64,000 nucleotides of DNA from Candidatus Sericytochromatia bacterium (GTDB taxonomy: Bacteria > Cyanobacteriota > Sericytochromatia > UBA7694). Of the stretch, positions 4,467 through 64,000 are shown one piece after another; the stretch's first letter is position 1, and each line of letters begins with the position of its first letter. The stretch is taken from assembly GCA_018780035.1 (NCBI GenBank), contig JADMKE010000014.1, positions 9,271-73,270 on the forward strand, given 5' to 3'. The notes beneath the pieces were generated by a model, which saw only the letters and a program-made list of their open reading frames with translations, was not told the origin of the DNA and searched no databases. A program made the translations under genes and the position numbers.

Positions 4467-4490
4467 GCAGATAAACAGGTAGACAGAAAA

Positions 4491-5480
4491 ATGCAGCACA
4501 CGGCTGAACTCCGGCCCATGACGCCCGAAGAGCGTGCGGCCCTCCCCGAAGTTTCACTGGTGGCCCCCATGTACAACGAAAGTGAAGGCCTCGACCAGTT
4601 TTTTGAGACCGTCACCCCCATTCTCGACAAAATTGGCCCCAATTGGGAAATCGTCTGTGTTAACGACGGCAGTCGTGATGATACCCTGGCCAAACTGATT
4701 GCTCACCACGAGCGCGACCCGCGCATCAAGGTAATCAATTTTTCGCGCAATTTTGGCAAAGAGGCGGGTACCACCGCAGGCATTGATTTCTCGCGGGGCA
4801 AAGCGGTGATTCCGATTGACGCCGATTTACAAGACCCGCCTGAATTGATTCTGGAAATGGTGCAAAAATGGCGCGAGGGTTATAAAGTGGTCTTGGCCAC
4901 GCGCTCCGAACGCAAAGAAGACACCTGGGTCAAACGCCACTCGGCGCTGATGTTTTACCGTTTGATCTCGGCCATGAGCGAGGTCCATATCCCCAAAAAC
5001 ACCGGCGATTTTCGCTTGATGGACCGCCAAGTGGTGGACACCTTGAAAAAACTGCCCGAAAAAACCCGCTTTATGAAAGGCATTTTCGCCTGGTTGGGTT
5101 TTCCCACCACCACGATTTACTTTGAGCGCCCGGCGCGCTTTGCAGGTCAAACGAGTTGGAATTATTGGAAACTCTGGCGCTTTGCCCTGGATGGCATTTT
5201 CGCCTTTACAACCTTGCCCCTGCAGGTCTGGACCTATTTGGGTGCAGGCATTTCGCTGCTCAGTTTTGTCTATGCCTCGGTGCTGATTTTTCGCACGATT
5301 TTAAACGGGGTCGAAGTGCCAGGTTATGCCTCGACCATGGTGGCAATTCTGTTTTTGGGCGGCATTCAGTTGACCAGCTTGGGGATTATTGGCGAGTATG
5401 TAGGCCGGATCTACAAAGAGGTCAAAGGCCGCCCGATCTATATCGTGGCCAATAGTTATGGCATTTATATCGACGACTGA
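4491..5480 (+). CDS. GT2-family glycosyltransferase, polyprenyl-phosphate sugar transferase (ArnC/DPM1-like)
   Basis: Reads VSLVAPMYNE...VCVNDGSRDDT...IPIDADLQDPPE with two C-terminal TM helices. Confidence 0.85.
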   Translation: MQHTAELRPMTPEERAALPEVSLVAPMYNESEGLDQFFETVTPILDKIGPNWEIVCVNDGSRDDTLAKLIAHHERDPRIKVINFSRNFGKEAGTTAGIDFSRGKAVIPIDADLQDPPELILEMVQKWREGYKVVLATRSERKEDTWVKRHSALMFYRLISAMSEVHIPKNTGDFRLMDRQVVDTLKKLPEKTRFMKGIFAWLGFPTTTIYFERPARFAGQTSWNYWKLWRFALDGIFAFTTLPLQVWTYLGAGISLLSFVYASVLIFRTILNGVEVPGYASTMVAILFLGGIQLTSLGIIGEYVGRIYKEVKGRPIYIVANSYGIYIDD

Positions 5481-13984: not shown

Positions 13985-14197
13985 GGAAACAGCCTCTGTA
14001 TATATTGATTAATCTTTAATAGTGTGATATACGTATACGCGTGCATACTATACACAAAATCATCTGGATTGCTAATTTTCAATAATAATTTAATACCAAA
14101 TTAAATATAAGGAATGAGATTCAAAATTGTTGAACATTAGACAAGAATCACATCCTAAACGCTATTCTCGAATACATTCCTCACAAGGTAAAATCCA
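13985..14197. promoter_or_regulatory. AT-rich leader of the island with ~33 bp dyad-symmetric element (TATACGTATA / ACGCGT / GTATAC)
   Basis: The element is gtgtgatatacgtatacgcgtgcatactatacac at ~14023..14056, inside an extremely AT-rich 200 bp stretch upstream of the methyltransferase. Confidence 0.35.
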
Positions 14198-17100
14198 GTG
14201 TCAAAGCCATTAACAGCACTATACAAGGAACTCGATTTTTTAAATGGTGCTCTGTATACAGCTTCCGATACACCCTTAAAAGAGGTAAGTCCCCTTGAAT
14301 GGGTTGAAAAAGGCGAATGGTTAGCAGCAGCCAAAAGAGCTGGGGCAGAAAAAATCTTCTTTATTGAGAATAACCCAGTCGTTGTGTTTGCTGAGTGCGA
14401 TTCTGCTCCTGAAGAAAAGATCAAAGCCTTTAACCGAATCTGGAGTCTTGCTCGACCACGTTTATTATTTCTAGCCTCTCCCACTGAGATTACAGTATTA
14501 GATTTAGCCCAAGAACCCATTTTAGGTAATAAGCCGAATGAAAAAAACCGAAGCCTTAAAAGCTTGGCCACGCTTCAAGACATTTCCAAAATTGCCATTG
14601 AACTCCAAGCCTTCCATCGGAATAATGTTGAGTCGGGCAAGGTTTTTGGAGAAGAGCTTTTTGGTGATTTAAAGCATCGTGCAGATCAGGCTCTTATACA
14701 TGATATCAAAGCCGTTCGATTTGAATTGCTTGCTGCTGGTTTGCCCGTAAAGTATGCCCATGCATTGATAGGGCGCTCAATCTTTATTCGTTATTTAGAA
14801 GACAGGGGAATTCTAACAAAAGAATATTTTTTGAGTGTAGCAAAAAATAATGCCGAATGGTCAGCCTTGCTAAGTAAAGAGTATGTAGGATTGGGAGTAG
14901 ATCTATCCGAACAAGAAGTTTATTATCCTCGTGTATTATCTTCAAAATCGTTCTCGTATGCTTTATTCAAACAGTTAGCCCATGATTTTAATGGGGATAT
15001 GTTTCCCGACATTCAAGAAGAAGAGCAAGCTATCACAGAAAAGCAATTAGAACTTATTCAAGGTCTACTTTATGGAGAGGTGGGTCGGCAAAAAAAATTA
15101 TTTTTCTTTTCCTATCGATTCGACATAATCCCTCTTGATCTGATCAGTTCTATTTATGAAGAGTTTTACCATTTAGCCCTTAGCCCTGAAAACAAAAAAA
15201 ACAACGCGCGGCAAGATGGGGCATATTACACACCGCCTGTTTTAGTAGAGTTTTTGCTGGCTAGAATTTTAGATCCTGAGACCCTTGAAAAGAGTCCACG
15301 TATTTTAGACCCGGCTTGTGGATCGGGTATTTTCCTTGTTGAAGCCTTTCGCAGAATTGTTAGGTATGATTGGCATAAAAAGAATAAACGCCTGGATTTA
15401 AGTGAACTCAAATCAATTCTGAAAAATCAGATTGCTGGCATTGAAATCAATGGTGAAGCAGCCCGTATTACAGCATTTAGTCTATACCTAGCTACACTAC
15501 ATTATCTTGATCCACCCTCCATCATGGGGCAAATTAAGAGCGGCCAGAAACTGCCTAATTTATTAGTCTCGAATACAGTATCACCCAATCACTTTAACTG
15601 TATCTGGGCAGAAAAAAATGCTTTTAATTCTCAGGAGATAACAGAAAACCAACCTCTATTAGAAAAATTTTGCTCTGGAACCACTGACATCGTTATTGGC
15701 AACCCGCCATGGGGAGCACCAGGTAATAAAGCTGATAAAAAAACAAAAGCCCGCGAAAACACTATGTTGGATTGGTGTAAAAGTAATTCTAGACCTATTG
15801 GAGACAAAGAGCCTTCTCAAGCCTTTATCTGGCGAGCCTTTGATTTTGCTAAAGTTGGTGGAAAGGTTGCGCTACTTGTATCTGCCGGTGTTTTGTTCAA
15901 ACACGGGACAACTACCCAGGAATTTCGTGAAAAATGGTTGGATTCTGTACACTTAAATGAAGTATTCAACTTTAGTCATGTACGCAAATTCTTTTTTAAT
16001 GGTGCAGTGTCTCCTTTTGTAGGAATTACATTCACTAAACAAGCGCTCTGTAAAGAAAACGAAAATGTCACCTATTATTGGTCTGCAAAGCAGGTTAACA
16101 CTTTAACCAAAACACAAGCTGTCGTGTTTTCAAAATATGATGTTCATCTTCTAAAAAATGAAGATCTGAGTTCAAATATTAGTTGGAAAACATACTGGTT
16201 TGGCCGTTCTGAAGATCTAACGTTAATTAAATTGCTATTGTCTAAAAAATCATTATCTGAGTTTATCGAGCATGCGGGAAGGGGTTATGAGATTGCATCT
16301 AAAACCGAAAATGCCTCAGTGCTAGCAAAATATAATGCTCTTGATATCCGCTCCTTCTCTCGCTATGACGCAATATCTTTTACTTCCCCTCCAGAACGAG
16401 TTTATAGATTCGGAAACACCGCACTTTACTCTGGCAAACGGATTTTGGTAAAAAGAGGGATTAGCGAAAACAGTGAACCAAAAGGCCAAATTACGGCAAG
16501 GTATGAAGAAGACGATTTTTGTTTCAGAAATGCAATTCACGGCATTAAATTACTGGATGACCAAGAATGGCAATACAAAGTCTTATTAGGCATTCTTTGG
16601 TCATCCCTCACAAGATACTTTTTTTTCATGGTTTCGTCTAATTGGGGGCTCTGGCATCATGAAATACACCTGAAAGATGAATTGTTAAAGCTTCCGGTCG
16701 TGCTTGATAATACACACCCGGCTACCAGCAAAATTATTGCTATTGTGGATTCTCTCCGGAACTCTAAAACCGCTGAGAACAGTCTGTTAGATCGTTTGGC
16801 CGATAATTACCTTGAAATGCAGATAAAACGCAATCAATGGGAAGAGGAGCTTGATCAAGCTGTTTTCCAACTTTATGGACTGAACAATGAGCATCAAGAT
16901 TTGATTAGAGATTTTTGTGAGATCACATTACCCTATTTGTATCAACCTTTTACCTCTGAAGGTATTGCCCCTGTTACTGAACGAGATAATGAGTCTTCGT
17001 TAAAAGAGTATATTCAATTATTTTCGAGACGCTGGAACGCATATCTAAACGAAGATGAAGAAATGAGAGCAACCATTCATATTGGTGCTGACAATAACTT

Positions 17101-17392
17101 AGTCGCATTAGAATTCTTTCCATCTGAAAAAGGTGATAGTTGGGACTTTACGCCACACTATAATACTTGGGGAGATGTTCTTAAGGAAATGGGCAAGTCT
17201 TTGCATAACCCACTTGGAAATTCACAAATTGTTTTAGAGGGCATTGTTCATGCTGTCACCGATGATGCAATTATTATCATCAAAAGGAATGAAAAACGTT
17301 TCTGGACAAATAGCTTAGCAAGAGAAGATGCTGATGCTACCCTTTGCAAACGTATGCTTGCCGATAATATAAGGAGCAAAATAGAGGTTTAA
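14198..17392 (+). CDS. large gamma-class N6-adenine DNA methyltransferase, PglX/MmeI/Type IIG-like (no recognisable N-terminal nuclease or ATPase)
   Basis: GTG start. In order: helical-region motif FDIIPLDLISSIYEEF; motif X QDGAYYTPPVLVEFL; motif I ILDPACGSGIFLVEAF; motif IV TDIVIGNPPWGAP. Roughly 550 aa follow after NPPW, which is a candidate TRD. No Walker A motif. Composition is visibly AT-rich compared with flanks. Confidence 0.85.
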   Translation: MSKPLTALYKELDFLNGALYTASDTPLKEVSPLEWVEKGEWLAAAKRAGAEKIFFIENNPVVVFAECDSAPEEKIKAFNRIWSLARPRLLFLASPTEITVLDLAQEPILGNKPNEKNRSLKSLATLQDISKIAIELQAFHRNNVESGKVFGEELFGDLKHRADQALIHDIKAVRFELLAAGLPVKYAHALIGRSIFIRYLEDRGILTKEYFLSVAKNNAEWSALLSKEYVGLGVDLSEQEVYYPRVLSSKSFSYALFKQLAHDFNGDMFPDIQEEEQAITEKQLELIQGLLYGEVGRQKKLFFFSYRFDIIPLDLISSIYEEFYHLALSPENKKNNARQDGAYYTPPVLVEFLLARILDPETLEKSPRILDPACGSGIFLVEAFRRIVRYDWHKKNKRLDLSELKSILKNQIAGIEINGEAARITAFSLYLATLHYLDPPSIMGQIKSGQKLPNLLVSNTVSPNHFNCIWAEKNAFNSQEITENQPLLEKFCSGTTDIVIGNPPWGAPGNKADKKTKARENTMLDWCKSNSRPIGDKEPSQAFIWRAFDFAKVGGKVALLVSAGVLFKHGTTTQEFREKWLDSVHLNEVFNFSHVRKFFFNGAVSPFVGITFTKQALCKENENVTYYWSAKQVNTLTKTQAVVFSKYDVHLLKNEDLSSNISWKTYWFGRSEDLTLIKLLLSKKSLSEFIEHAGRGYEIASKTENASVLAKYNALDIRSFSRYDAISFTSPPERVYRFGNTALYSGKRILVKRGISENSEPKGQITARYEEDDFCFRNAIHGIKLLDDQEWQYKVLLGILWSSLTRYFFFMVSSNWGLWHHEIHLKDELLKLPVVLDNTHPATSKIIAIVDSLRNSKTAENSLLDRLADNYLEMQIKRNQWEEELDQAVFQLYGLNNEHQDLIRDFCEITLPYLYQPFTSEGIAPVTERDNESSLKEYIQLFSRRWNAYLNEDEEMRATIHIGADNNLVALEFFPSEKGDSWDFTPHYNTWGDVLKEMGKSLHNPLGNSQIVLEGIVHAVTDDAIIIIKRNEKRFWTNSLAREDADATLCKRMLADNIRSKIEV

Positions 17393-18072
17393 TGGCACGT
17401 AAAGCACTGCCCTCTTTTTCTGCCTTATGGGAAAAACATGAAGAAATTTATACAGGAGTGTTTAAGGCCGCTCTTCAAAGGTTGTCTGAAAAACATTTAG
17501 ATCTCTCACATGAAGATCGGATATCCGAACAGCTTTGCTTAATATTAAATCAGGTCTGTTATGAGATAAGTAATCCTGAGAGAGAAGTTCCAAATCCAAT
17601 TTGGGAAAATCCAATCCATCCTGTATCAGAGGACGAGCTTACAAATGGACGAAGCAACAAAAGGCCTGATTTTACTTGCAAGAAAGTAAACAGCTTTGCA
17701 ATAGATCCTAGCGAACATGAAATTAGTTTTCATATTGAATGTAAACGGCTAGGAAGCCCGACAAGTAGAACATGGGTTCTAAACGAAAGATATGTTACGA
17801 ATGGTATTGCACGTTTTGACTCAGCGCATGAATATGGTAAACGCGCAAATTCTGGCATGATGGTTGGCTATATTATCGATATGGAAGCAGACCAAATACT
17901 GGCAGAAGTAAATCAACATCAAAAACGTCATCTATCACATAACCCGACACTATCGTTTAACTTTGATGGAAACAAAGTAAGTACAGCGGTACAAAATTTG
18001 CAAAGACAAAATGTCCTTCCTCAAAGATTTAGGCTTTCGCATCTTTGGGTTGATTTAAAGACCTGCGCATAG
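17392..18072 (+). CDS. PD-(D/E)xK-like putative restriction-endonuclease-fold protein, translationally coupled to the methyltransferase
   Basis: TAATG stop/start overlap with the methyltransferase. Motif: KRPDFTCKK...EISFHIECKRLG, i.e. PD ... ExK. A diverged paralogue is at 63003..63674. Confidence 0.7.
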   Translation: MARKALPSFSALWEKHEEIYTGVFKAALQRLSEKHLDLSHEDRISEQLCLILNQVCYEISNPEREVPNPIWENPIHPVSEDELTNGRSNKRPDFTCKKVNSFAIDPSEHEISFHIECKRLGSPTSRTWVLNERYVTNGIARFDSAHEYGKRANSGMMVGYIIDMEADQILAEVNQHQKRHLSHNPTLSFNFDGNKVSTAVQNLQRQNVLPQRFRLSHLWVDLKTCA

Positions 18073-18273
18073 ACGCTAAATATGGTGAATTTCCTTCGCT
18101 ATTATGAAAAAGAATGACGAATAAACATGTTATCAATCAACAGTATCGCTGGAAGCGTTAAAAGCAGAAACAGCTCACGAATCTGAGTCTGTAACAGGGC
18201 TTAGGTGCGTTGGTTTGGTATCAATCGCAGTATAATAGCCGCAGCACTTACTCAGATAGAAAAGGAAACCCCC

Positions 18274-55838: not shown

Positions 55839-57635
55839 ATGAAAAAAGTCCTGGTGATTGAGCCGTCTTCCCAGGTCTGCCAAAAAATCGTGGATATCCT
55901 GCATATCAGTGGTTTTGAGACACTCACAGCGGACAACGAGACCACAGGTCTGGCCCTGGCCCAGGAATACATTCCTGATCTGATTATCTACAACCACGCC
56001 ACCGAGCAAATGAATCCCCAAGAGGTCGAAGAGATCTTACAATCGGATATCGACACGGCGGCGATCCCTGTGATCTGTGTGATTTCAGAAGAAATGTACA
56101 CCTTTAAGATGCTCGAGAAAAATTTTGATCCCGAGCGTTTTCTGATCAACCCCTTTCGGCCCGAAGAGCTGATGCTCAAAGTCAATCAACACCTGCCCAT
56201 CAGCACCGCTTACCGCCACATGGCTGTGGCCAGTTCCCCGGTGATTAGCAATGTCAATATCCCCGCCCATTATTACGACAGTATCACCGGCCTGCCCAAC
56301 CATATTTTGTTGCACCAGGTTTTGATCGAAGACGTGCAGACCACACCCACGGAATTTTTGGTCGGTGTGCTGGTGATTGACCTCGACCGCTTCCGCACGA
56401 TCAACGACGCCCTCGGCCACGACAATGGCGATTTGCTGCTCAAAGCGATCAGCCAGCGCTTGATCAATTGCGTCGGGGGCAATGAACGGGTCTTTCACCT
56501 CGGCGAAGACAAATTTGCGGTGCTTCTGCCCGATCTGATTCAGGAACAAGATGCCGCCAAGGTCGCCAACGATATCATCCACGAGATCAAACAGACCATT
56601 CCCTTTCAAGACCACGAACTCCATATCACCGCCAGCATTGGCATCAGCCTCTACCCCACTGACACCACCGAGATCAAAAAGCTGCTGCGCTGCGCGGAAA
56701 CCGCCATGTATCAGGCCAAAGAGCAGGGCCGCAATACCTACGAGTTTTATTCCAGTTTTATCCGCAGCAAAGCTTACGACCGCCTCAATCTCGAAAGCGG
56801 CTTGTACCGCGCACTCAAACACGACGAATTTAAGCTCTATTACCAGCCCAAGGTTGATCTGGCCCAAAACCGCGTGGTCGGTATGGAAGCCCTGATTCGC
56901 TGGCACCACAAAGATTTTGGCTGGGTCTCTCCCACCCAATTTATTCCCCTGGCCGAAGAAACCGACCTGATCCTGACCATTGGTGAATGGGTCCTGCACG
57001 AGGCCTGCCGCCAGAACAAATACTGGATGGACCAAGGCTATCCCGAACTCTGCGTGACGGTCAATGTCTCAGGCCAGCAGTTCAAACGCATGGACATTGT
57101 CAAATTGGTCAATCACGTGCTGGAGCAGACCCAAATGCCACCGGAATGCCTGCAATTGGAATTGACCGAAAGCGTGCTGATGAAAAATATCAGCAATACG
57201 GTCGTGAAACTGGGTGATCTCAAAAAACGGGGCGTCTCGATTGCCGTTGACGATTTTGGCACAGGTTATTCTTCGCTGGCCTATCTCAAACGCTTTCGCC
57301 TGGACACCCTCAAGATCGACCAGTCTTTTGTGCGGGATATCGACAACGACTCCGACGACGCAGCGATTGTCTCGGCGATTATCAATATGGCCCACAGCTT
57401 GGGCATGACCGTGGTGGCCGAAGGGGTCGAAACCCGCAAGCAGCTCGACTTTTTGCGCCTGCACAATTGCGACCAGATTCAGGGCTATTATTTTGCCAAG
57501 CCCCTGCCTGCTGAAGACTTTGCCAAATTGCTCGATCGCGACTATGACGAAAATCTCCAGGCCCGAGACAGCTTGCTCGCGGCCACCGCTGACGAGCCTG
57601 AGGTCTTTCCGCTGACCATGCCTGCTGACGATTGA
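55839..57635 (+). CDS. c-di-GMP phosphodiesterase: pseudo-receiver, degenerate GGDEF, active-looking EAL
   Basis: The receiver lacks the DD pair and the phospho-Asp (LVIEPSS, DLIIYNH). GGDEF reads HLGEDKFAV where GG(D/E)EF is expected. EAL motifs are intact: EALIRW, QLELTESV, DDFGTGYSSL. Confidence 0.85.
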   Translation: MKKVLVIEPSSQVCQKIVDILHISGFETLTADNETTGLALAQEYIPDLIIYNHATEQMNPQEVEEILQSDIDTAAIPVICVISEEMYTFKMLEKNFDPERFLINPFRPEELMLKVNQHLPISTAYRHMAVASSPVISNVNIPAHYYDSITGLPNHILLHQVLIEDVQTTPTEFLVGVLVIDLDRFRTINDALGHDNGDLLLKAISQRLINCVGGNERVFHLGEDKFAVLLPDLIQEQDAAKVANDIIHEIKQTIPFQDHELHITASIGISLYPTDTTEIKKLLRCAETAMYQAKEQGRNTYEFYSSFIRSKAYDRLNLESGLYRALKHDEFKLYYQPKVDLAQNRVVGMEALIRWHHKDFGWVSPTQFIPLAEETDLILTIGEWVLHEACRQNKYWMDQGYPELCVTVNVSGQQFKRMDIVKLVNHVLEQTQMPPECLQLELTESVLMKNISNTVVKLGDLKKRGVSIAVDDFGTGYSSLAYLKRFRLDTLKIDQSFVRDIDNDSDDAAIVSAIINMAHSLGMTVVAEGVETRKQLDFLRLHNCDQIQGYYFAKPLPAEDFAKLLDRDYDENLQARDSLLAATADEPEVFPLTMPADD

Positions 57636-57773
57636 TTGTTTTCCTTTCTTTAAATTTTGATTATTTCTCTAAACTTTTCGGGTTAACTTTCAGACAAGGT
57701 TAAAACCAGGCAGTATTTTGATAGAATTTTACTTGTCTTTTGTTAAAAAAACCCAGCCTCTGTCTGAAATATC

Positions 57774-59312
57774 ATGTATGGAGAAATGCCCATGGGAAAA
57801 GTAAACCGTTTTCTGAGCCTGACGATCTTAATCGGAGTGGTGCTGAACAGCTGCACAAGCCCCGCCCCTTTTAATTCTGCCCTTGAATTTGAAAAATCGC
57901 TCCAACCCCTGAATCAAGCCCTGAGACAGAGTCATATCCGAGCGATTTGGGCCCCCGATGGCCAGAAAGTGGCCTTGATAGCCTCTCGTTGGCTGGCCAG
58001 CGACGAAACGCCCTCGCCCAGTAAAATCCGCCACCATCAGATCACGGTTTATGCAAGCAGTGACGGCACCCCTCTTGCCTCTTGGAGCCTGAGTCTGCCA
58101 GACCTGCGCGAAGATAGCTTCATTCCCGATGAACACCCCTTTCAATTACAGTGGAATGCCAGCGGCACAGAATTTCAGATTTTGAAAGATTTTACAACTC
58201 CTCAGCAAGACGTGCTTGAATTGACGCGCTATCAGGTGCCAGAAAGCCACAGTGGTGGCTATTTAGGTGGCCCGCCCCCACTCAAACGGCAGGTCTTTGT
58301 GCCTGCGGCCCTGAAAAGCTTAAGCACCACAGGGCTGGGACAACCGCGCCTGAGCCCAGATGGTAAAAAAATAGCACTTTATCGCTACCGCGACGAAAGC
58401 AAGCACACAGCCGAGGTGATGGTGCTCAATTTAGATACGGCTGAGAGCCAAACCTGGGGCAATTTGGATTCTGAACAGCCCCTGCAAGCCCCACAATGGG
58501 CAGGGGCATCCGATTCCCTGTTTGGCATGAGTAGCCGGGGCACAAGCGCTGAAATTCAGCGTTTGCAATTTGAAAAGCCAATCAGCTCAGTGTTTCAGGC
58601 CAACCTCTCACAGCCCAATCAACACCCCTTGCGCTTCGCGCTCTCTCCCAATCAAAGCCAAGCTGTGGTTGAATTTCAAAGCAAAACCCAAAACCCCACC
58701 TCCACCTTTGTGGTAGCGGGGCCACTTGGAACCGACAAAGCCATGCCATTCGAATTACCACGCCTGCTGATGCCTGTTGGCAGCATTTGGAATCCCAGCG
58801 GAGAATTGGGTCTCCTCCACTATCAACAGAGCAATTCCAGCCATTTGGAAATGAAGTGGTTAAATCCGCAGACAGGCACACAGCGCCAAGCGTTTGAACC
58901 ACGCCTGATTCAAAATAAATTGAATCCCCTGTTCAACCGGACAGATCGCCAAATTGGCCAGCCACAAGGGATTAGCGTCAATGCGGGATCTGTGCCCCCA
59001 TTTACCATGCCCACTTATTTCCAGAATACCCAGGGTGTTCTGGATGTGTATCAATCGATTGTGCCGCATTATTTCTCTCTGGCTGCATTTTCACCCAGAG
59101 ATAACCGGCTTTTACTGCTGGTGGATGGGGTGAGATTAAACGATGGCCAATACCTGGCCCAGCGCAATCTGATCGAACGTCCCTTTGCCTTTGTGCTGGA
59201 GCCCGACAAACAGCGACTGGTGCCCTTGAAGACGTCAGTGGCAGAATCTTTGGGTTATTCTTATCAAGAAGGGCAGAAATTTGAAGCCCCTGCCGAGATT
59301 TCGTTGAAATAA
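57774..59312 (+). CDS. lipoprotein with TolB/WD40-like beta-propeller
   Basis: Lipobox VLNSC; the likely start is MGKVNRF at 57792. Repeats include SPDGKKIALYRY. Confidence 0.65.
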   Translation: MYGEMPMGKVNRFLSLTILIGVVLNSCTSPAPFNSALEFEKSLQPLNQALRQSHIRAIWAPDGQKVALIASRWLASDETPSPSKIRHHQITVYASSDGTPLASWSLSLPDLREDSFIPDEHPFQLQWNASGTEFQILKDFTTPQQDVLELTRYQVPESHSGGYLGGPPPLKRQVFVPAALKSLSTTGLGQPRLSPDGKKIALYRYRDESKHTAEVMVLNLDTAESQTWGNLDSEQPLQAPQWAGASDSLFGMSSRGTSAEIQRLQFEKPISSVFQANLSQPNQHPLRFALSPNQSQAVVEFQSKTQNPTSTFVVAGPLGTDKAMPFELPRLLMPVGSIWNPSGELGLLHYQQSNSSHLEMKWLNPQTGTQRQAFEPRLIQNKLNPLFNRTDRQIGQPQGISVNAGSVPPFTMPTYFQNTQGVLDVYQSIVPHYFSLAAFSPRDNRLLLLVDGVRLNDGQYLAQRNLIERPFAFVLEPDKQRLVPLKTSVAESLGYSYQEGQKFEAPAEISLK

Positions 59313-59343
59313 GTTAGAAACAGAGAGGCCACGACCTCTGACG

Positions 59344-60294
59344 ATGGTGAGTCGGGTCTCTCTGTTAAAATGGCTCAGTCGTAATGCTTCTGGAGAAGAT
59401 GAAATGTATCGCCTCCCTGACGGATTTTTACTTTCGGCCTTTGGTTCTGCCGCACAGGATTTGCAAGGCCCCTCTGCGCTGATTCAATTGCGCTCGGTCA
59501 GCAAGATCTTTAAAAACCGCGAAGTGTATACCTTGCCCAATTATGTCTTGTTTATTCCCCTGCTCGGGCAAAAGATTTTTTATGCCCAAGCCCAGGCCTA
59601 TCCAGTGGAGGCCGGAGAGGTCCTGTTTATTCGGCCCCAGGCCCCGATCAGCTGCGATCTGGTGCGTTTGGATCAGGGGCAATTTGAAGCCCTGATGTTT
59701 TTTATGGAGCCTGAATTTATTACTCAGATCTTGCAGAAATACCAGATCCACTTAAAACCCACAACAAGTCAGATGCAAGATATTTGCAAGGTGATGGTCA
59801 CGCCCCTGCTGCAAAACTGTATTGAATCGCTCTTGCCGCTCTATGTGCAAAGGCCCAAACATGCAGAGGCCTTGATTCAGGTTAAAATGGAAGAATTGCT
59901 GCTGAGTTTGCTTGAAAGTGAGGACGAGCAGGCCCAGGCCCTGTTTGCGCTTTTGGCGGGAGCTGGCAAATCTGAATTGCAAAGCTATTTGGAGCTGATT
60001 GAACACTGTCTCGCTGAGCCCATGACGGTTGAACAAATGGCACACAAATTGCACCAAAGCCCTTCGCTGTTTAAAAAAGAATTCAAGCGGCATTTTGGCT
60101 TGCCTCCCGCCCAGTACATCTTGGACAAACGCCTGGAGCGGGCTGCACAGATGCTGAGCCTGAGTGAGCAGAGCATGACGGAAGTGGGCTTGGCCAATGG
60201 GTTTGAGAGCACTTCGCACTTTATACAGTGTTTTAAAAAACGCTTTGGCTGTACACCCCGGCAGTACAAAATGTCCAAATTGGCTAGTTTTTGA
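59344..60294 (+). CDS. AraC/XylS-family transcriptional regulator
   Basis: C-terminal dual HTH: MTVEQMAHKLHQSPSLFKKEFKRHFG...LSEQSMTEVGLANGFESTSHFIQCFKKRFGCTPRQY. Confidence 0.85.
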   Translation: MVSRVSLLKWLSRNASGEDEMYRLPDGFLLSAFGSAAQDLQGPSALIQLRSVSKIFKNREVYTLPNYVLFIPLLGQKIFYAQAQAYPVEAGEVLFIRPQAPISCDLVRLDQGQFEALMFFMEPEFITQILQKYQIHLKPTTSQMQDICKVMVTPLLQNCIESLLPLYVQRPKHAEALIQVKMEELLLSLLESEDEQAQALFALLAGAGKSELQSYLELIEHCLAEPMTVEQMAHKLHQSPSLFKKEFKRHFGLPPAQYILDKRLERAAQMLSLSEQSMTEVGLANGFESTSHFIQCFKKRFGCTPRQYKMSKLASF

Positions 60295-60377
60295 ACCAAT
60301 TCTGATAGTGGCGGCTTTGGAGAAGTATTAACCTTAAATTAATACAAACACAAAGTGATTTCCCAAGGAGCCCCCCC

Positions 60378-60665
60378 ATGATACGCCTCTTTTTCGTCTT
60401 GATTGCCCTGAATCTCAGCCTGACAGCCTGTCAGAGCCAAATCCCGCTTGCCACCTCATCACCGGCGCTGCGCAGCTCCGCGTTTTTACCGCCAGAGCCC
60501 GGCACCACGCCCAAACCCAAGCCCTGTGTAAATACCCAGGCGATTCTGCCGCCAGGCTTGAATCCCAAACCGGGCTGTCCTTGTTCAGGAATCAAACCCC
60601 GTGCGTTTATTCCGGTTGAGCCGGGGATGCCTGGGAATCCGTTGAAGCCGAAGCCGGGGTGTTAG
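60378..60665 (+). CDS. small Pro/Cys-rich lipoprotein
   Basis: Lipobox LTAC. PKPxP repeats and four Cys. Confidence 0.5.
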   Translation: MIRLFFVLIALNLSLTACQSQIPLATSSPALRSSAFLPPEPGTTPKPKPCVNTQAILPPGLNPKPGCPCSGIKPRAFIPVEPGMPGNPLKPKPGC

Positions 60666-60844
60666 GGTCGTCGGCATCTCATTGGAGATAAAAACTGGCC
60701 GTTGTTCAGGGCCGGTCGTTCCTGTTGGCGCAAGCACCTGACGTTCGGTGCTTGGCCAACACGTAGTGCCTTCATTCAATTCTGTGAGGATTTGCTGAAT
60801 GGCTGGATAGCGATCATGCAACTGTCAGAAATTTAGAATGAGTG

Positions 60845-60874
60845 CTTGACAAATTTTAAAGTAATCGATTAGAG
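60845..60874 (+). promoter_or_regulatory. sigma-70-like promoter (TTGACA-17-TTAGAG/TAGAGT)
   Basis: TTGACA at 60845..60850 with a 17-18 nt spacer to a -10-like hexamer. Confidence 0.4.
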
Positions 60875-60936
60875 TCAAAAATACGCAGCAAAAAAACGCT
60901 GTTTCAAAAATAAAAAATAACGAAAGGTATAAAACG

Positions 60937-60999
60937 ATGAGCAACAAAATGTCCTTACAACTGCAATTGTGTCTGCTCAGGTTGATGGGTGCTTCATAG
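60937..60999 (+). CDS. 20-codon small ORF (MSNKMSLQLQLCLLRLMGAS) between promoter and terminator
   Basis: An RBS aaagg lies 9 nt upstream of the ATG, and it ends 24 nt before a strong terminator. It could instead be part of an sRNA. Confidence 0.3.
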   Translation: MSNKMSLQLQLCLLRLMGAS

Positions 61000-61022
61000 C
61001 CCAGATCAATCAGTTTTGTACT

Positions 61023-61070
61023 GAGAGAGAACCGGGAAGCGCCCACAAGCCTTCCCGGTTCTCTCTTTTT
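61023..61070 (+). terminator. intrinsic terminator: 15-bp perfect stem (GAGAGAACCGGGAAG / CTTCCCGGTTCTCTC), 11-nt loop, T5; followed by (TG)5
   Basis: I checked the inverted repeat base by base. A U-tract follows only on the plus strand. Confidence 0.8.
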
Positions 61071-61101
61071 TGTGTGTGTGAACTTTGAAAATCAAATACA
61101 A

Positions 61102-61183
61102 GTCGGCGTGTCCGAGTGGTTAAGGAAGCAGTCTGCAAAACTGTTGGGGAAACCCGTCGTGAGTTCAAATCTCACCGCCGACT
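61102..61183 (+). tRNA. tRNA with anticodon GCA (Cys) and discriminator U73, but class-II-like long variable arm (14 nt) and 3-bp D-stem
   Basis: Manual fold: acceptor GTCGGCG/CGCCGAC; D TCC-GAGTGGTTAAG-GGA; anticodon stem GCAGT/ACTGT with loop CTGCAAA; variable TGGGGAAACCCGTC; T-arm GTGAG-TTCAAAT-CTCAC. CCA is not encoded. Confidence 0.65.
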
Positions 61184-61231
61184 CTGAAGTTGCTCCCATC
61201 ACATGGGTGAAAATGGGCAACTTCTCTTTTG

Positions 61232-61307
61232 TGCGCGAGTGAAGGGAATTTGGCATACCTCAGATACTCAGAATATCTGGTTTAAGCGTTCGAGTCGCTT
61301 CTCGCGT
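61232..61307 (+). tRNA. tRNA-like gene, anticodon CAG (Leu) but class-I shape (5-nt variable arm); imperfect D-stem
   Basis: Acceptor GCGCGAG/CTCGCGT (G1-U72). Anticodon stem AGATA/TATCT with loop CTCAGAA. T-arm AAGCG-TTCGAGT-CGCTT. Needs tRNAscan/ARAGORN confirmation. Confidence 0.45.
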
Positions 61308-61313
61308 ACCTTT

Positions 61314-61387
61314 TGCCGCAATACCCCAATTGGCAGAGGGAATAGGTCGAGAGCCTATTCAGTGAAAGTTCGAGTCTTTCTTGCGGT
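61314..61387 (+). tRNA. tRNA-like gene, anticodon GAG (Leu), class-I shape, C33 in anticodon loop
   Basis: Acceptor GCCGCAA/TTGCGGT. Anticodon stem (G)AATAGG/CCTATT(C) with loop TCGAGAG. T-arm GAAAG-TTCGAGT-CTTTC. Atypical, and may be a pseudo-tRNA. Confidence 0.4.
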
Positions 61388-61392
61388 ACTGA

Positions 61393-61472
61393 GGTCCCTG
61401 TGGCGTAACAGGTAGCCGCATCTGCCTTAAGAGCAGACGTTTATTCGTGGAGGTTCGAATCCTCTCAGGGAC
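61393..61472 (+). tRNA. tRNA-Leu (anticodon TAA)
   Basis: Acceptor GTCCCTG/CAGGGAC. D GCG-TAACAGGTAGC-CGC. Anticodon TCTGC-CTTAAGA-GCAGA. 11-nt variable arm. T GGAGG-TTCGAAT-CCTCT. Discriminator A. Confidence 0.8.
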
Positions 61473-61476
61473 ACTC

Positions 61477-61560
61477 TGTCGGAATGGGGGAATTGGTAGA
61501 CCCGGCAGGCTCAAACCCTGCTGCTTTAAAAAGCGTGAGAGTTCGAATCTCTCTTCCGAT
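61477..61560 (+). tRNA. tRNA-Leu (anticodon CAA)
   Basis: Acceptor GTCGGAA/TTCCGAT. Anticodon GCAGG-CTCAAAC-CCTGC. 15-nt variable arm with hairpin. T GAGAG-TTCGAAT-CTCTC. Discriminator A. Confidence 0.8.
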
Positions 61561-61627
61561 ATTGACTTTCTGAGGTCAAAGAATCAGAATCAATCCAGAC
61601 AGTCTAGATTTAAAAAAGGGGTGCTTC

Positions 61628-61879
61628 ATGTCCAAAAATTGGCAACTTCAAGAGGCAAAAAATAAATTCAGTCAGGTGGTCGATTGCGCGTGTAACGAAG
61701 GCCCCCAAATTGTGACACGACACGGAAAAGAAACCGTGGTGATTCTCTCACTTGAAGATGACCAAGAACTTTTAAAGCCCCAAAACGCCTTGGTCGATTT
61801 TTTTGCGGCATCCCCTTTAAAGGGCTTGAATTTAGATCTGGAAAGAAATGCTTCAGCACCCCGACCTGTTGATTTATGA
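61628..61879 (+). CDS. Phd/YefM-family antitoxin
   Basis: MSKNWQLQEAKNKFSQVVDCACNEGPQIVTRHGKETVVILSLEDDQELL is the typical Phd/YefM fold. ATGA overlap with the following PIN toxin ORF. Confidence 0.85.
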   Translation: MSKNWQLQEAKNKFSQVVDCACNEGPQIVTRHGKETVVILSLEDDQELLKPQNALVDFFAASPLKGLNLDLERNASAPRPVDL

Positions 61880-62019
61880 AATATCTGCTGGATACCTGTC
61901 TTCTCTCTGAATTACTCAAGCCACAACCCCAAGAGACTGTGATTGAATGGTTTCAAACGGTTCCAGAAACACAGCTCTATTTGTCTGTTTTGACCCTGGG
62001 AGAACTTCATAAAGGGTGA
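61876..62019 (+). pseudogene. vapC: vapC (PIN-domain toxin) truncated after 47 codons
   Basis: MKYLLDTCLLSELLKPQPQETVIEWF...VLTLGELHKG then TGA. A full PIN domain is ~130 aa. TTAGCAA-type AT-rich repeats follow immediately, and composition drops to AT-rich. Confidence 0.75.
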
Positions 62020-62138
62020 GGGCAAGTTACAAGTTTAAAACCGGTGCTAGATTTAGCAAATTAGCAATGGTGTCAAGGGCAGTGAGTTAGTAAGGTAGTA
62101 ATTAGCAAATGACAATAATTCTTTTAAAAATTCAACAA

Positions 62139-62903
62139 TTAAATTTTTATATCAGCTGGTGAATTTCTTTTTTGAGAGCTTTCTTCTTTACTCATAAAAT
62201 CTTTATACATTCGGATATTGTTTTTTAAAATATTCGAATCTTTTGTCGCTTCAGATCTTGATCTTATTTTTAATGTTACATAATCTCGATTTCCCAACAA
62301 ACCTGTACTACTAACTTCATATCCATATTTTTCCCCCAAATAAATTTTTACGTTTTCTGCCCAAGCAAAAATTTTAAATTGAGAATTTTTCTCAATTTGC
62401 TCTCGAACATATTCGCCTCGGGTTTCTTCTGTATATTCTGTTCCTTGAAAAATTAACTTTGACCTAGAAAAATCATCAGCGAGACTTTTGCTATAAACCT
62501 TTGTTAACAGAAGTTGAGCTTTTGAGTTTTCTCGAGTCCAAATATCTAAATATTCTACATCCTCCCATAGTCTTGAATCAGTGTATTGACTAATTTCTTT
62601 ATCTCGATTATATTTTCTTTTTACAAGAGAAAGTGTTTCTTCTACTAAGTCGGCTTTTTTATCGCCCATTCGATTGGAAGTAGGATATGAAAGTTCAATA
62701 TCTAGGAAAACATTATCTTGCAACTGGCGAAATGCAATTATCCGCCAGACATCCATAGAATCAAGAGGACCAATATAATAGGTAGCTAAAAACGGATGTC
62801 TATTTATCCAATTAATGGTATCTTGGTATTTGTCTCCAGGAAGAGCATAAGCAGAATGACAAATCGATACAAATACTGATGTTAATAACAATATTTTTTT
62901 CAT
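62139..62903 (-). CDS. secreted hypothetical protein (AT-rich island 2)
   Basis: Signal peptide MKKILLLTSVFVSICHSAYA. Lys/Glu/Tyr-rich with low-GC codon usage. Confidence 0.6.
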   Translation of the reverse strand: MKKILLLTSVFVSICHSAYALPGDKYQDTINWINRHPFLATYYIGPLDSMDVWRIIAFRQLQDNVFLDIELSYPTSNRMGDKKADLVEETLSLVKRKYNRDKEISQYTDSRLWEDVEYLDIWTRENSKAQLLLTKVYSKSLADDFSRSKLIFQGTEYTEETRGEYVREQIEKNSQFKIFAWAENVKIYLGEKYGYEVSSTGLLGNRDYVTLKIRSRSEATKDSNILKNNIRMYKDFMSKEESSQKRNSPADIKI

Positions 62904-63002
62904 ATAGTCAATATTCCTAATATATCAATTATTTCTGACTCTAAATGAGTCCCAAGGTACACTTTCTGATGTTTGGCAAATGGCGAAGAATTTTAAGGTA
63001 AT

Positions 63003-63674
63003 TTAAACATCGGCAGAAACTATCGTTGCTCTGAAATCCAAAAAAACATGCAATAAATCAAGATGACTGCCATCTGAGCGGGTATGCTTACTTTCCCATT
63101 CATGGGGCAAATCTTTGAGAACCTGGACTTTTTTTAGGGGTTCAACAATGTTTAAAGTTGGATCCTCTTTTGAATTATCAAAGATCTTTTGTAATTGTCT
63201 AAACCAATGATCTGGAGATAAGTCCTGAATATAAGCCAACATTCCCGCTTCGGGCTGCTCCACGGCATACTCACATTTCAAAAAACACTGCATACCCCCA
63301 TCACCAGTATATTTACGGATAGTATGAGTACCTTTTTTTAAACGTTTGGCCTCAAAGCAAAATTTGGGTCGTGGTTTTGTGTGACTGTTAGAAATCACAA
63401 TATCTATGCGTTTGCGATTTTTTCCAGAAGCGGAAACATGTGGAACATGGGTTTCTTCTCCGATATGATAGTGTTCATATTCTTGTGGAGTGTCTCGATC
63501 ATTAAATCTTAAGTCTATGGCTTCTGTTAGCCAACCAGTGATATCTTCTTCTTGATTTTCGGGAGTCACTTTTGATTTGATATCTTCGTATCCCCAAGCT
63601 AAAAGCTGATGCACACACTCTCTAACTCTCGAAAAGTAAGTTTGCCAGAGAGCGTCTGGCTTATTTAAAATCAC
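63003..63674 (-). CDS. PD-(D/E)xK-like protein, paralogue of the 17392..18072 protein
   Basis: KRIDIVIS...KFCFEAKRLKKG...YTGDGGMQCFLKCEYA aligns to RPDFTCKK...ISFHIECKRLGS...YVTNGIARFDSAHEYG. The N-termini also match (ALWQ vs ALWEK). GTG start overlaps the upstream ORF stop (GTGA). Confidence 0.65.
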   Translation of the reverse strand: MILNKPDALWQTYFSRVRECVHQLLAWGYEDIKSKVTPENQEEDITGWLTEAIDLRFNDRDTPQEYEHYHIGEETHVPHVSASGKNRKRIDIVISNSHTKPRPKFCFEAKRLKKGTHTIRKYTGDGGMQCFLKCEYAVEQPEAGMLAYIQDLSPDHWFRQLQKIFDNSKEDPTLNIVEPLKKVQVLKDLPHEWESKHTRSDGSHLDLLHVFLDFRATIVSADV

Positions 63675-64000
63675 ACAAACGCTCCTGAATAACTCAGAAT
63701 CTCAGCAATGATTTCATCAGCATCAATCATGGCTTGGGTACATGTCCAATCTATCAAACGCGGAGTTTTCCAGATATGATAATATTTCCCATCCAAAACA
63801 CGCAGACCTTGTTGAACATAGAGCCATTGGCTAAAAGGCTTTTTTAAAATCTGCCATAGATGCTCATCTTCCTCAGATAGCTCTTCAAGTTTTTGAATAT
63901 AGGGAGCAAGCGGCTCTAGAGCATCAGTTATTTCTACAGTACAGGAAATAAATTCCGAGTATTGTTTTATGTTTATGAGATGATGTTTGTATGCAAATGA
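63671..64000 (-). CDS. hypothetical protein, N-terminus off-window, translationally coupled to the PD-(D/E)xK paralogue
   Basis: The minus-strand frame is open from the window end to the TGA at 63671..63673 (...KTPRLIDWTCTQAMIDADEIIAEILSYSGAFV*). No domain recognised. Confidence 0.5.
   Translation of the reverse strand, partial: SFAYKHHLINIKQYSEFISCTVEITDALEPLAPYIQKLEELSEEDEHLWQILKKPFSQWLYVQQGLRVLDGKYYHIWKTPRLIDWTCTQAMIDADEIIAEILSYSGAFV

Follow-up and report, generated by a model that had tools for sequence, protein, structure and literature searches.

Organization of the tRNA Locus

A stretch of 64,000 nucleotides (hereafter the window) from the genome of a Candidatus Sericytochromatia bacterium (assembly GCA_018780035.1, contig JADMKE010000014.1, positions 9,271 to 73,270) carries a tRNA-Cys gene with a long variable arm, situated at 61102-61183 at the head of a cluster of five tRNA genes. 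The cluster occupies 460 bp and is composed, in this order, of Cys-GCA, Leu-CAG, Leu-GAG, Leu-UAA, and Leu-CAA, with A at the discriminator position (A73) of all the leucine genes. Upstream of it, between 60846 and 61073, lie a promoter-like site, a small leader open reading frame (ORF) whose codons match the anticodons of the five tRNAs, and a predicted intrinsic terminator, an arrangement that we favour reading as an operon induced on demand through ribosome-mediated attenuation. Positions are those of the window, and its features lie on the plus strand unless stated otherwise. ARAGORN detected no other tRNA gene in the 64 kb.

Two metagenome-assembled genomes (MAGs) of Candidatus Sericytochromatia and one Candidatus Blackallbacteria MAG (L002, L012, and L033) carry this tRNA within an equivalent cluster of five genes, and a scan of metagenomes added one further copy on contig L258.

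Structure of the tRNA-Cys Gene

ARAGORN called a tRNA-Cys(gca) at 61102-61184, and the Rfam model RF00005 matched the 82 nt at 61102-61183 with 58.4 bits (gathering score 29; E = 4.8e-10), covering all 71 model positions and placing approximately 11 surplus bases in the variable region. The drawn fold and our own parse agree on a 7/5 cloverleaf (acceptor stem of 7 bp, T stem of 5 bp) whose acceptor stem, GUCGGCG/CGCCGAC, consists of seven Watson-Crick pairs out of seven. This stem is followed by U8 and G9, a D stem of 3 bp (UCC/GGA) with G13.A22 next to it, a D loop of 10 nt, the anticodon stem GCAGU/ACUGU, and the T arm GUGAG-UUCAAAU-CUCAC. The anticodon loop, CUGCAAA, is the same in the ARAGORN and Rfam alignments. 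The variable region, UGGGGAAACCCGUC, is 14 nt long and is composed of a single U, a GGG/CCC stem closed by a GAAA loop, and a final GUC, so that with at least 10 nt and a stem-loop of its own it places the gene among class II tRNAs. The discriminator U73 (position 61183) directly follows the 7-bp acceptor stem, CCA is not encoded, and the universal tertiary nucleotides are all present (U8, G18G19, U33, U54U55C56, A58), together with the A36A37A38 motif. Folding without constraints returned the same cloverleaf and the variable hairpin as the minimum free energy (MFE) structure (-30.1 kcal/mol, z = -3.25), and none of 200 shuffled sequences was as stable.

An earlier note on this DNA, made from the letters alone, had described a cloverleaf with a perfect 7-bp acceptor stem, a 3-bp D stem, the CUGCAAA loop with its GCA anticodon, a 14-nt variable arm with a GGG/CCC stem, and a discriminator U. 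All of these elements were recovered here at the positions given in the note. The note had also considered that a short-armed fold might score better or that the anticodon had been misplaced; neither ARAGORN nor Rfam proposed a short-armed fold or another anticodon register for this gene. Additionally, an 8/4 or 9/3 distribution of acceptor and T pairs is impossible because U8 would face C65, and a tRNA-Sec-like fold was ruled out by the sequence and by Rfam clan competition.

Amino Acid Identity of the tRNA

In bacteria, a long variable arm is generally ascribed only to the tRNAs for leucine, serine, tyrosine, and selenocysteine (Sec). The earlier note had offered two readings of the gene, an unusual tRNA-Cys or a Tyr/Ser-like class II body retargeted to the UGC and UGU codons, and had named GCA and U73 as the main identity elements for cysteinyl-tRNA synthetase (CysRS). 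The literature agrees on the latter point: the main features recognized by CysRS are U73 and GCA, and U73 by itself is enough to give cysteine identity to minihelices (PMC9976931). As to the former, the D and anticodon arms speak for the first reading. When the metagenome was queried with the D arm UCCGAGYGGUUAAGGA and a GCA anticodon, the matches other than L258 were ordinary short-armed tRNA-Cys genes, whose D and anticodon arms are nearly identical to those of the window tRNA. For example, nucleotides 8-44 share 36 of 37 positions with L260, a class I tRNA-Cys from a metagenome, from which the window gene differs by a hairpin of approximately 10 nt inserted in the variable loop. Overall body identity, considered as a guide to the origin of the gene, was uninformative, being about equal for long-armed Cys (0.70), class I Cys (0.68), and Ser tRNAs (0.70); the direct alignment with class I tRNA-Cys was the informative comparison. 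A recent origin by duplication, within the locus, of one of the adjacent Tyr, Ser, or Leu tRNAs was likewise rejected, with local identities of at most 70%, no higher than to unrelated loci.

One genome per species and a set of viral contigs were scanned for a pattern consisting of a Ser/Cys-like D arm, the GCA anticodon, an arm-length variable region, and a standard T loop. The pattern matched 51 genomic stretches and 86 viral contigs, and all tRNAs in these loci were parsed with correction of the register. The discriminator of the 121 long-armed tRNAs with a GCA anticodon was U in 113, A in 6, C in 1, and G in 1. It was A in each of the 62 long-armed Tyr tRNAs and each of the 127 long-armed Leu tRNAs of the same loci, and in the 66 long-armed Ser tRNAs it was G in 48, U in 17, and A in 1. 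U73 is accordingly found in 93% of the long-armed GCA tRNAs versus 26% of the Ser tRNAs, and in 83 of 85 when only viral contigs are counted. The variable arm of this long-armed tRNA-Cys family is a true hairpin under selection, with stems of 3 bp or more in 88% of 85 unique members versus 49% of shuffled sequences. The mean stem is 3.8 bp, compared with 5.4 bp in Ser tRNAs and 3 bp in the window. The layout of the window arm (one unpaired nucleotide, the 3-bp stem, three unpaired nucleotides) is the modal one for Tyr and long-armed Cys tRNAs, and the mode for Ser tRNAs has flanks of one and one.

The retargeted Tyr/Ser-like body is the part of the earlier proposal that was not supported. For tyrosyl-tRNA synthetase (TyrRS) the gene lacks both U35 and A73, having C35 and U73 instead, and although the geometry of its variable arm is Tyr-like, G13.A22 is not, occurring in 6 of 79 Tyr tRNAs. 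The GCA anticodon, the 3-bp variable stem, and the flanks of one and three nucleotides likewise set it apart from the Ser tRNAs of these loci. Furthermore, four UGY codons of the window genome align with four cysteines in the C-terminal region of M. tuberculosis OppD (Rv1281c), residues that we take to bind its Fe-S cluster, which argues that UGY has its standard meaning in this genome and that misreading of cysteine as serine or tyrosine would be costly. Charging of a long-armed tRNA-Cys by CysRS also has experimental precedent in the selC* tRNAs (PMC5389517). From its sequence, the gene is probably a genuine tRNA-Cys with an expanded variable arm, accepting cysteine.

Leader ORF and Predicted Attenuator

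The promoter-like site upstream of the cluster (60846-60875) is composed of TTGACA, a spacer of 18 nt, and TAGAGT, with 10 of 12 consensus positions. Further downstream, a Shine-Dalgarno-like AAGG (60924-60927), read from the sequence, lies 9 nt 5' of the ATG that starts the leader ORF (60937-60999), which encodes MSNKMSLQLQLCLLRLMGAS in 20 codons followed by a stop. Codons 7-16 of the leader are TTA CAA CTG CAA TTG TGT CTG CTC AGG TTG, and seven of these ten are cognate to the five tRNAs, with one codon type per downstream tRNA (anticodon/codon pairs UAA/TTA, CAG/CTG, CAA/TTG, GCA/TGT, and GAG/CTC). CTA, the leucine codon without a tRNA in the cluster, is not used in the leader. Of the 557 ORFs in the window that start with ATG and have 12-40 codons, counted on both strands, only the leader ORF (counted with two nested starts) contained all five cognate sets and at least seven cognate codons in ten.

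Three RNA structures with the logic of an attenuator were predicted between 60980 and 61073. Hairpin 1:2 (60980-61011), the putative anti-antiterminator, pairs GGUUGAU (60980-60986) with AUCAAUC (61005-61011) at -12.6 kcal/mol and is part of the full-length MFE fold; the leader stop codon (60997-60999) falls within this hairpin, in region 2. The antiterminator 2:3 (60986-61045) pairs UGGGUGCUUC (60986-60995) with GAAGCGCCCA (61036-61045) and, computed with the 3' arm of the terminator withheld, reached -23.6 kcal/mol (z = -3.9), a value equalled by none of 200 shuffles. The intrinsic terminator 3:4 (61023-61073) consists of a 19-bp (17+2) hairpin at 61023-61067 followed by a U-run, with -34.1 kcal/mol and z = -7.2, and ends 28 nt before the 5' end of the tRNA-Cys gene. 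The GAAGCGCCCA strand forms part of the 5' arm and loop of the terminator, which makes the antiterminator and the terminator mutually exclusive.

Leader, terminator, and antiterminator are intact in four aligned genomes. The terminator is invariant among them, and the leader ORF has two variable sites, each a third codon position with a synonymous change (AAA/AAG and TCC/TCA). The block shared with L002, L012, and L033 starts just 5' of the -35 box, beyond which L002 is unrelated. The Rfam families of leucine, histidine, threonine, tryptophan, and phenylalanine leaders gave no match over 60500-64000 at E values up to 10. Judged by its sequence, the leader probably functions as an attenuator of the tRNA genes.

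Codon-Matched Leaders Upstream of Other tRNA Clusters

Similar leaders were sought before 273 non-redundant clusters of two to six tRNAs taken from all collected loci. Each cluster was scored by the largest number of codons matching its own anticodons within any 10-codon stretch of its best same-strand upstream small ORF. A score of at least 7 was reached by 13 clusters, compared with 0.9 +/- 0.9 (maximum 3) when leaders were permuted to clusters of equal cognate-set size, and a score of at least 8 by 7 clusters, compared with 0.1 in the same permutation. On the opposite strand, used as a control, the corresponding numbers were 1 and 0. When each cluster was compared with shuffles of its own upstream region, 21 had p <= 0.01, with at most 2.7 expected. 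After allowing for related copies, the clusters at the score-7 threshold represent approximately ten independent families. The resulting share, about 5-8% of small clusters, is not an unbiased frequency because the loci had been collected for containing Cys tRNAs. Solitary tRNA genes showed no excess of codon-matched leaders over permutation. In every one of the top-scoring cases examined, a strong hairpin with a U-run was located between the leader stop codon and the first tRNA.

The clearest case was found in an Armatimonadota MAG (L030, approximately 3800-4520, minus strand), where a leader containing the segment HHSCHSGCSGC precedes the genes for Ser-CGA, Ser-GCT, a long-armed Cys-GCA, Gly-GCC, and His-GTG, and the serine codons of the leader are only AGT and TCG. 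Other examples include MFVTTIKTEEEKI before Glu, Glu, Ile, Lys, Lys, and Thr tRNAs (L247), ...FEFDFFAAEADF... before Ala, Asp, Glu, and Phe tRNAs (L236), ...LVTLLSLCLLVVC... before Cys, Leu, and Val tRNAs (L063), and, with a score of 6, ...QQQFCF... before Cys, Gln, and Phe tRNAs (L239). On balance, we lean towards regarding codon-matched leader attenuators as a general and so far undescribed control device for tRNA genes of phages, mobile arrays, and some chromosomes.

Codon-matched upstream ORFs were also noted at L119, L090/L113 (together with L063), L070/L133/L126, L183, L244, L141, L164, L205, L032, L249, and L234. In a Saprospiraceae MAG (L041), a small ORF approximately 70 nt 5' of position 4154 ends in three consecutive cysteine codons directly ahead of its stop, upstream of a solitary long-armed tRNA-Cys, a case that is not significant alone given the lack of an excess at solitary tRNAs.

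Long-Armed tRNA-Cys Genes in Other Genomes

The pattern scan also showed that tRNA-Cys genes with a 7/5 fold and a long variable arm are widespread in uncultivated phages and in tRNA arrays, where they have apparently gone unremarked; public genomes and viral contigs contain well over a hundred genes of this kind, the window gene among them. The 86 viral contigs with the long-armed pattern compare with at least 120 that carry the short-armed version of it, and the length of the variable region in GCA tRNAs is bimodal, being either 4-6 or 11-19 nt. Many of the genomic cases are situated in dense tRNA arrays of 7-31 genes in Planctomycetota, Proteobacteria, Chloroflexota, and other groups. A different situation was found in four Actinomycetota species (MAGs L001, L015, L020, and L049), each of which has a solitary 81-nt long-armed tRNA-Cys (GCA, U73). 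These genes are 99-100% identical and their syntenic flanks 70-85% identical, a difference that argues for purifying selection on a long-armed tRNA-Cys in a cellular lineage and suggests, as far as sequences can tell, that a whole actinobacterial lineage uses it. Because more than a hundred long-armed genes keep the U73 rule almost without exception, the variable arm of tRNA-Cys appears to be a free, evolvable module, which would be useful for engineering orthogonal or tagged tRNAs.

When the window tRNA and 15 representatives of the family were compared by BLAST, a weak method for tRNAs, with 50,697 records of isolate phages, no long-armed tRNA-Cys was found, a result that, given this weakness, does not show their absence from cultured phages. 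The hits were mainly Tyr and Ser tRNAs, and those inspected were Tyr or Ser; one partial match, to nucleotides 8-43 of the window tRNA, was an annotated tRNA-Cys of Streptomyces phage TunaTartare, which was not among the hits inspected. The tRNA-Cys of 61 oxyphototrophic cyanobacteria has a length of 71-76 nt (PMC6933170). Among the literature matches found, the only long-armed tRNA-Cys described was the 8/4 selC* type.

Several tRNAs seen along the way depart from the rules of their class. In a Trichlorobacter MAG, the gene at 3344-3428 of L010 has a typical tRNA-Tyr body, A73, and an encoded CCA, yet its anticodon is GCA; it occupies the corresponding position of a classical Thr-Tyr-Gly-Thr operon and is either a Tyr-charged decoder of cysteine codons or an assembly or sequence error. 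The long-armed GCA tRNA at 5554-5647 of L034, with a Ser-like acceptor stem (GGAGAGG), G73, and CCA, breaks the cysteine rule. Long-armed GCA tRNAs without a 7/5 fit are present in L003, L018, L021, and L023 and may be allo-tRNA-like molecules with a cysteine anticodon. Long variable regions were also seen in the 87-nt Lys and Asn tRNAs of a Piscinibacter array (L036, 4144-4230 and 4383-4469) and in a tRNA-Lys of the jumbo phage Xanthomonas XacN1 (L262, 3612-3700), annotated with 87 nt and called by ARAGORN with 89 nt and the anticodon CTT. Across the viral loci, 3.5-10% of the normally short-armed isotypes have long variable regions and short variable loops are found in 11-30% of the Leu tRNAs; in general, phage tRNA sets do not keep strictly to the class boundaries. 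Finally, L047, a sequence of 425,361 bp binned as 'Candidatus Pacearchaeota archaeon', bears a long-armed tRNA-Cys identical to that of a same-sized IMG/VR viral contig (L079, L110, L129) and probably represents a huge phage that was binned as an archaeon.

Leucine tRNA Genes, Genomic Surroundings, and Related Copies

The leucine genes of the cluster are irregular to different degrees. The gene for tRNA-Leu(CAG) (61233-61308), obtained with ARAGORN in a shifted register and with our own parse, has a 5-nt variable loop and three nucleotides instead of two between the acceptor and D stems, and it had no Rfam tRNA match even at E values up to 10. tRNA-Leu(GAG) (61315-61388; Rfam 45.7 bits) also has a 5-nt variable loop and carries C33, which is U33 in L033. 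tRNA-Leu(UAA) (61394-61473; Rfam 54.9 bits and own parse) has a variable region of 11 nt, and tRNA-Leu(CAA) (61478-61561; Rfam 52.1 bits) an arm of 15 nt. No tRNA-Leu(UAG) is present in the cluster. Between the Cys and the first Leu gene, a hairpin (61186-61224) followed by UCUCUUUUGU extends to 61232; it has -17.9 kcal/mol and z = -3.5, is conserved in the alignment, and is either a weak terminator or a processing element. Among approximately 2,400 parsed tRNAs, the nearest relatives of the four Leu tRNAs are phage Leu tRNAs, short-armed ones included. The idea that short-armed Leu tRNAs specifically accompany long-armed Cys tRNAs was rejected: viral loci chosen for class I Cys had short-armed Leu tRNAs at least as often (33 of 111) as those chosen for long-armed Cys (14 of 123).

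Downstream of the cluster, a Phd/YefM-type antitoxin gene (61628-61879; Pfam PF02604, E = 3.5e-15) is followed by a VapC (PIN) toxin gene of which, by comparison with L258 and L012, only the first 46 codons remain (61879-62019), ending where a low-GC region starts. In L258 (1-506), VapC is intact or longer and matches positions 1-67 of the Pfam PIN profile; in L012 (6839-7030), just a C-terminal PIN fragment adjoins tRNA-Leu(CAA), and this genome departs from the window a few bases past that tRNA. From this series of longer, truncated, and remnant VapC genes, the ancestral order appears to be the tRNA cluster followed by Phd-VapC. The sequences thus compared mark the 3' end of the cluster as a rearrangement hotspot.

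The rest of the window is an ordinary chromosome, with genes for ClpB, a sigma factor, flagellar FliM, Opp-type ABC ATPases, glycosyltransferases, and a GGDEF-EAL protein. L002 and L033 are syntenic with it and 91-97% identical across 7 kb of flanks, which places the window in that non-photosynthetic cyanobacterial lineage. The pattern scan found the cluster in only three GTDB species representatives and one metagenome contig. Across four aligned copies, the tRNA-Cys gene differs at 3 of 82 sites, no less than the spacers, and two of the substitutions, both G-C to G.U, fall in stems (L002). The phage-like Leu tRNAs, the narrow distribution, the U33C and the aberrant Leu-CAG, and the decayed VapBC with a variable island on the 3' side together indicate that the five-tRNA unit is most likely a horizontally acquired accessory set that arrived with the Phd-VapC module.

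Other variable segments were observed in the window. The region at 62020-64000, which begins at the VapC break, has 35% GC and two minus-strand ORFs of 254 and 223 aa, for which Pfam and PADLOC gave no match. Just upstream of the tRNA unit, a segment of approximately 3 kb (57633-60682) with genes for a PD40-like protein, an AraC/ExsA-type regulator, and a small proline-rich ORF is missing from L002 and L033 and is an insertion/deletion polymorphism. At 14000-18100, a low-GC island (38% vs approximately 51%) encodes a type IIG restriction-modification enzyme of 1064 aa and an unassigned protein of 226 aa. In Synechococcus phage RB11-B (L266, 1691-1864), a Phd-like antitoxin gene is located inside a tRNA cluster.

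Proposed Mechanism and Alternative Explanations

We assign a probability of roughly 60% to an account in which the long-armed tRNA-Cys and the four Leu tRNAs would form a demand-induced operon under ribosome-mediated attenuation. CysRS would charge the tRNA through U73 and GCA, and the tRNA would read UGU and UGC as cysteine; since CysRS, a class I synthetase, approaches from the D-arm side, the variable arm would point into solvent. Transcription from the promoter-like site near 60846-60875 would normally stop at the terminator at 61023-61073. A ribosome stalled on the Leu or Cys codons of the leader (approximately codons 11-14) would cover region 1 and leave region 2 to pair with region 3, which would block the terminator and let RNA polymerase read into the tRNA genes. 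A ribosome that reaches the leader stop codon would mask region 2, and in an untranslated leader region 2 would be held in hairpin 1:2, termination being the expected outcome both times. The operon would thus provide extra tRNA-Cys and tRNA-Leu precisely when these species fail in decoding, and possible triggers are the cleavage of tRNAs by an anticodon nuclease or one of PIN type, or translational stress of another kind. In a more general view, tRNA genes behind such leaders would be transcribed only when ribosomes stall for want of the tRNAs that they encode. Stalling could arise from cleavage of host tRNAs by anticodon nucleases or PIN toxins or from infection of a codon-mismatched host, and off-norm tRNAs such as the long-armed Cys and the short-armed Leu could be substitutes that are spared by whatever eliminated the original tRNAs.

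Several points weigh against this account. The promoter is a consensus match only. Most of the regulatory codons lie 5' of region 1, and only stalls at approximately codons 11-14 fit the steric model neatly. The hairpin and U-rich tract at 61186-61232 could halt transcription before the Leu tRNAs, which would be awkward for a Leu-rich leader. The five copies come from genomes that are 91-97% identical here and provide no covariation for the attenuator helices; the known copies being all close relatives, conservation and the two synonymous changes carry little weight. With regard to the tRNA, the G15:G48 Levitt pair of the E. coli/H. influenzae type is absent and G15:C48 stands in its place; C48 is, however, usual in the collected Cys tRNAs (105 of 107 class I, 83 of 85 long-armed), and the G15:G48 element is lineage-specific and does not define the tRNA-Cys family. 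Lastly, U73 is present in the 17 of 66 Ser tRNAs counted above, and a long variable arm with G73 or U73 is compatible with seryl-tRNA synthetase (SerRS) according to Mukai et al. (PMC5389517), so partial serylation is possible.

Four other explanations were weighed against the demand-induced operon. The same tRNA and attenuator could instead serve housekeeping supply, with the cluster as the sole source of tRNA-Cys and of the four Leu isoacceptors and the leader as a homeostatic feedback, which we consider unlikely. The ordinary chromosomal context described above, syntenic in L002 and L033, would suit such a role, as would the lack of any other tRNA gene in the window and the stable retention of a long-armed tRNA-Cys at a syntenic chromosomal site in Actinomycetota. 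The cluster is, however, confined to three species representatives and hence not class-wide, it has no gene for tRNA-Leu(UAG), its tRNAs resemble in shape those of phages and arrays, and both the C33 of Leu-GAG, replaced by U33 in L033, and a Leu-CAG too aberrant for Rfam would be hard to tolerate in sole copies.

It is more doubtful that the cluster is a decaying, silent remnant of an acquired phage-type tRNA array, with an unused tRNA-Cys and with an ORF and hairpins that are leftovers or coincidence. Decay would account for the aberrant neighbours (U33C in Leu-GAG, the 3-nt connector in Leu-CAG), the truncated VapC with the adjoining low-GC insertion, the narrow phylogenetic range, and a tRNA divergence (3/82) that equals that of the spacers, and long tRNA arrays are often poorly transcribed according to PMC8421152. 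It fits poorly with the flawless stems of the tRNA-Cys, its universal tertiary nucleotides and A36A37A38 motif, the two stem substitutions of L002 that both keep pairing, and the intact leader, terminator, and antiterminator of four genomes, among them L002, although its sequence is replaced 5' of the -35 box.

Charging wholly or partly by SerRS, which would place serine at cysteine codons as missense or make this a dual-identity tRNA, is very unlikely. Besides the SerRS compatibility and the U73-bearing Ser tRNAs mentioned above, it can draw on the observation that, with the anticodon masked, the nearest non-Cys relatives of the window tRNA are Ser tRNAs. The variable stem of 3 bp is nevertheless short against the Ser mean of 5.4 bp, its flanks of one and three follow the Tyr/long-armed Cys pattern and differ from the mostly one and one of Ser tRNAs, U73 is far more frequent in the long-armed GCA tRNAs, the 5' half of the molecule is tRNA-Cys sequence, and a Cys-to-Ser misreading would be costly at the UGY codons aligned with the OppD cysteines. 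A non-translational RNA, acting as a decoy or substrate of the neighbouring VapC-type RNase or simply as a site where genomic islands integrate, is the least likely of the four: the cluster abuts a Phd-VapC module in the ancestor, irregular tRNAs are associated with toxin-antitoxin systems (PMC5389517), and genome content shifts right after the last tRNA, but all translation-relevant features are intact, the leader logic is sensible only if the products relieve ribosome stalling, and the island junction is at tRNA-Leu(CAA) and not at tRNA-Cys.

If the demand-induced operon is the true account, it would explain how dozens of tRNA genes can be carried by phages and mobile arrays without constant expression, and it would connect tRNA arrays with the arms race that surrounds defence and toxin systems acting by tRNA cleavage. 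Transcription of tRNA genes is generally viewed as controlled by growth rate or the stringent response and occasionally by a repressor; a codon-mirroring leader would represent a direct, species-specific feedback from decoding to tRNA synthesis.

Comparison with Known Systems

When compared to canonical class I tRNA-Cys, the window tRNA shares GCA, U73, G1-C72, a 3-bp D stem with G13.A22, G15:C48, and A36A37A38, and it differs in its variable region, which has 14 nt instead of 4-6. The selC* tRNA-Cys genes (Mukai et al. 2017, Nucleic Acids Res 45:2776; PMC5389517) likewise combine a long variable arm with U73 and GCA, and their products are charged by CysRS and used in translation, which means that CysRS tolerates a long variable arm. 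They have, however, an 8/4 acceptor/T arrangement, their anticodon stem is longer, their D arm resembles that of tRNA-Sec, and they belong to anaerobes with selenocysteine machinery. In two deltaproteobacterial groups, the selC* genes are situated 5' of a second selB copy, which in Desulfobacterales is followed by a second cysS copy (PMC5389517). In contrast, the window tRNA has a plain 7/5 fold and an ordinary tRNA-Cys D arm and is flanked by the leader and terminator on one side and by Leu tRNAs and Phd-VapC on the other, with no sel genes nearby. Allo-tRNAs also have a long variable arm with an anticodon unexpected for class II and are associated with toxin-antitoxin loci, but they fold as 8/4 or 9/3, have a long, tRNA-Sec-like D stem with a tetraloop, and are mostly thought to carry serine, whereas the window tRNA is 7/5 with a D stem of 3 bp.

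As a unit, the cluster resembles the L-arrays or tRNA array units, for example the trn operon of Anabaena PCC 7120, whose tRNAs are supernumerary, horizontally spread, and atypical (PMC8421152, PMC10272220). Arrays comprise at least 20 genes at a density of at least 2 per kb, and the window unit has this density but only five genes. The Anabaena operon, also from Cyanobacteriota, is described as normally silent and induced by translational stress (PMC8421152) and, differently from the leader peptide of the window, as being under the protein repressor TrcR (PMC10272220). No mention of a leader peptide, attenuation, or a terminator was found in PMC8421152. A 2026 paper treats mycobacterial arrays as putative antidefence elements whose tRNAs are distinguished from their chromosomal counterparts by the D, anticodon, and variable arms; leaders or attenuation are not mentioned there. 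More broadly, none of the best-ranked 15-25 of 40-170 literature matches linked tRNA arrays, tRNA clusters, or phage tRNAs to leader peptides, leader ORFs, or attenuation, and a lower-ranked paper may do so. Attenuation itself is classical; the gating of tRNA genes by codons that mirror the downstream anticodons is undescribed in the available literature.

The closest regulatory parallels are the leader-peptide attenuators that precede amino-acid operons (trp, leu, his, thr, ilv, pheA; also pheST). Like them, the window region shows a promoter-like site, a short ORF in which regulatory codons are clustered, the predicted and mutually exclusive hairpins 1:2, 2:3, and 3:4, a stop codon in region 2, and a predicted terminator before the tRNA genes. 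Unlike them, it would regulate tRNA genes and not enzymes, and its regulatory codons are mixed, with four leucine families and cysteine that map one-to-one onto the downstream anticodons. Because of this one-to-one mapping, the signal sensed would be decoding by particular tRNA species.

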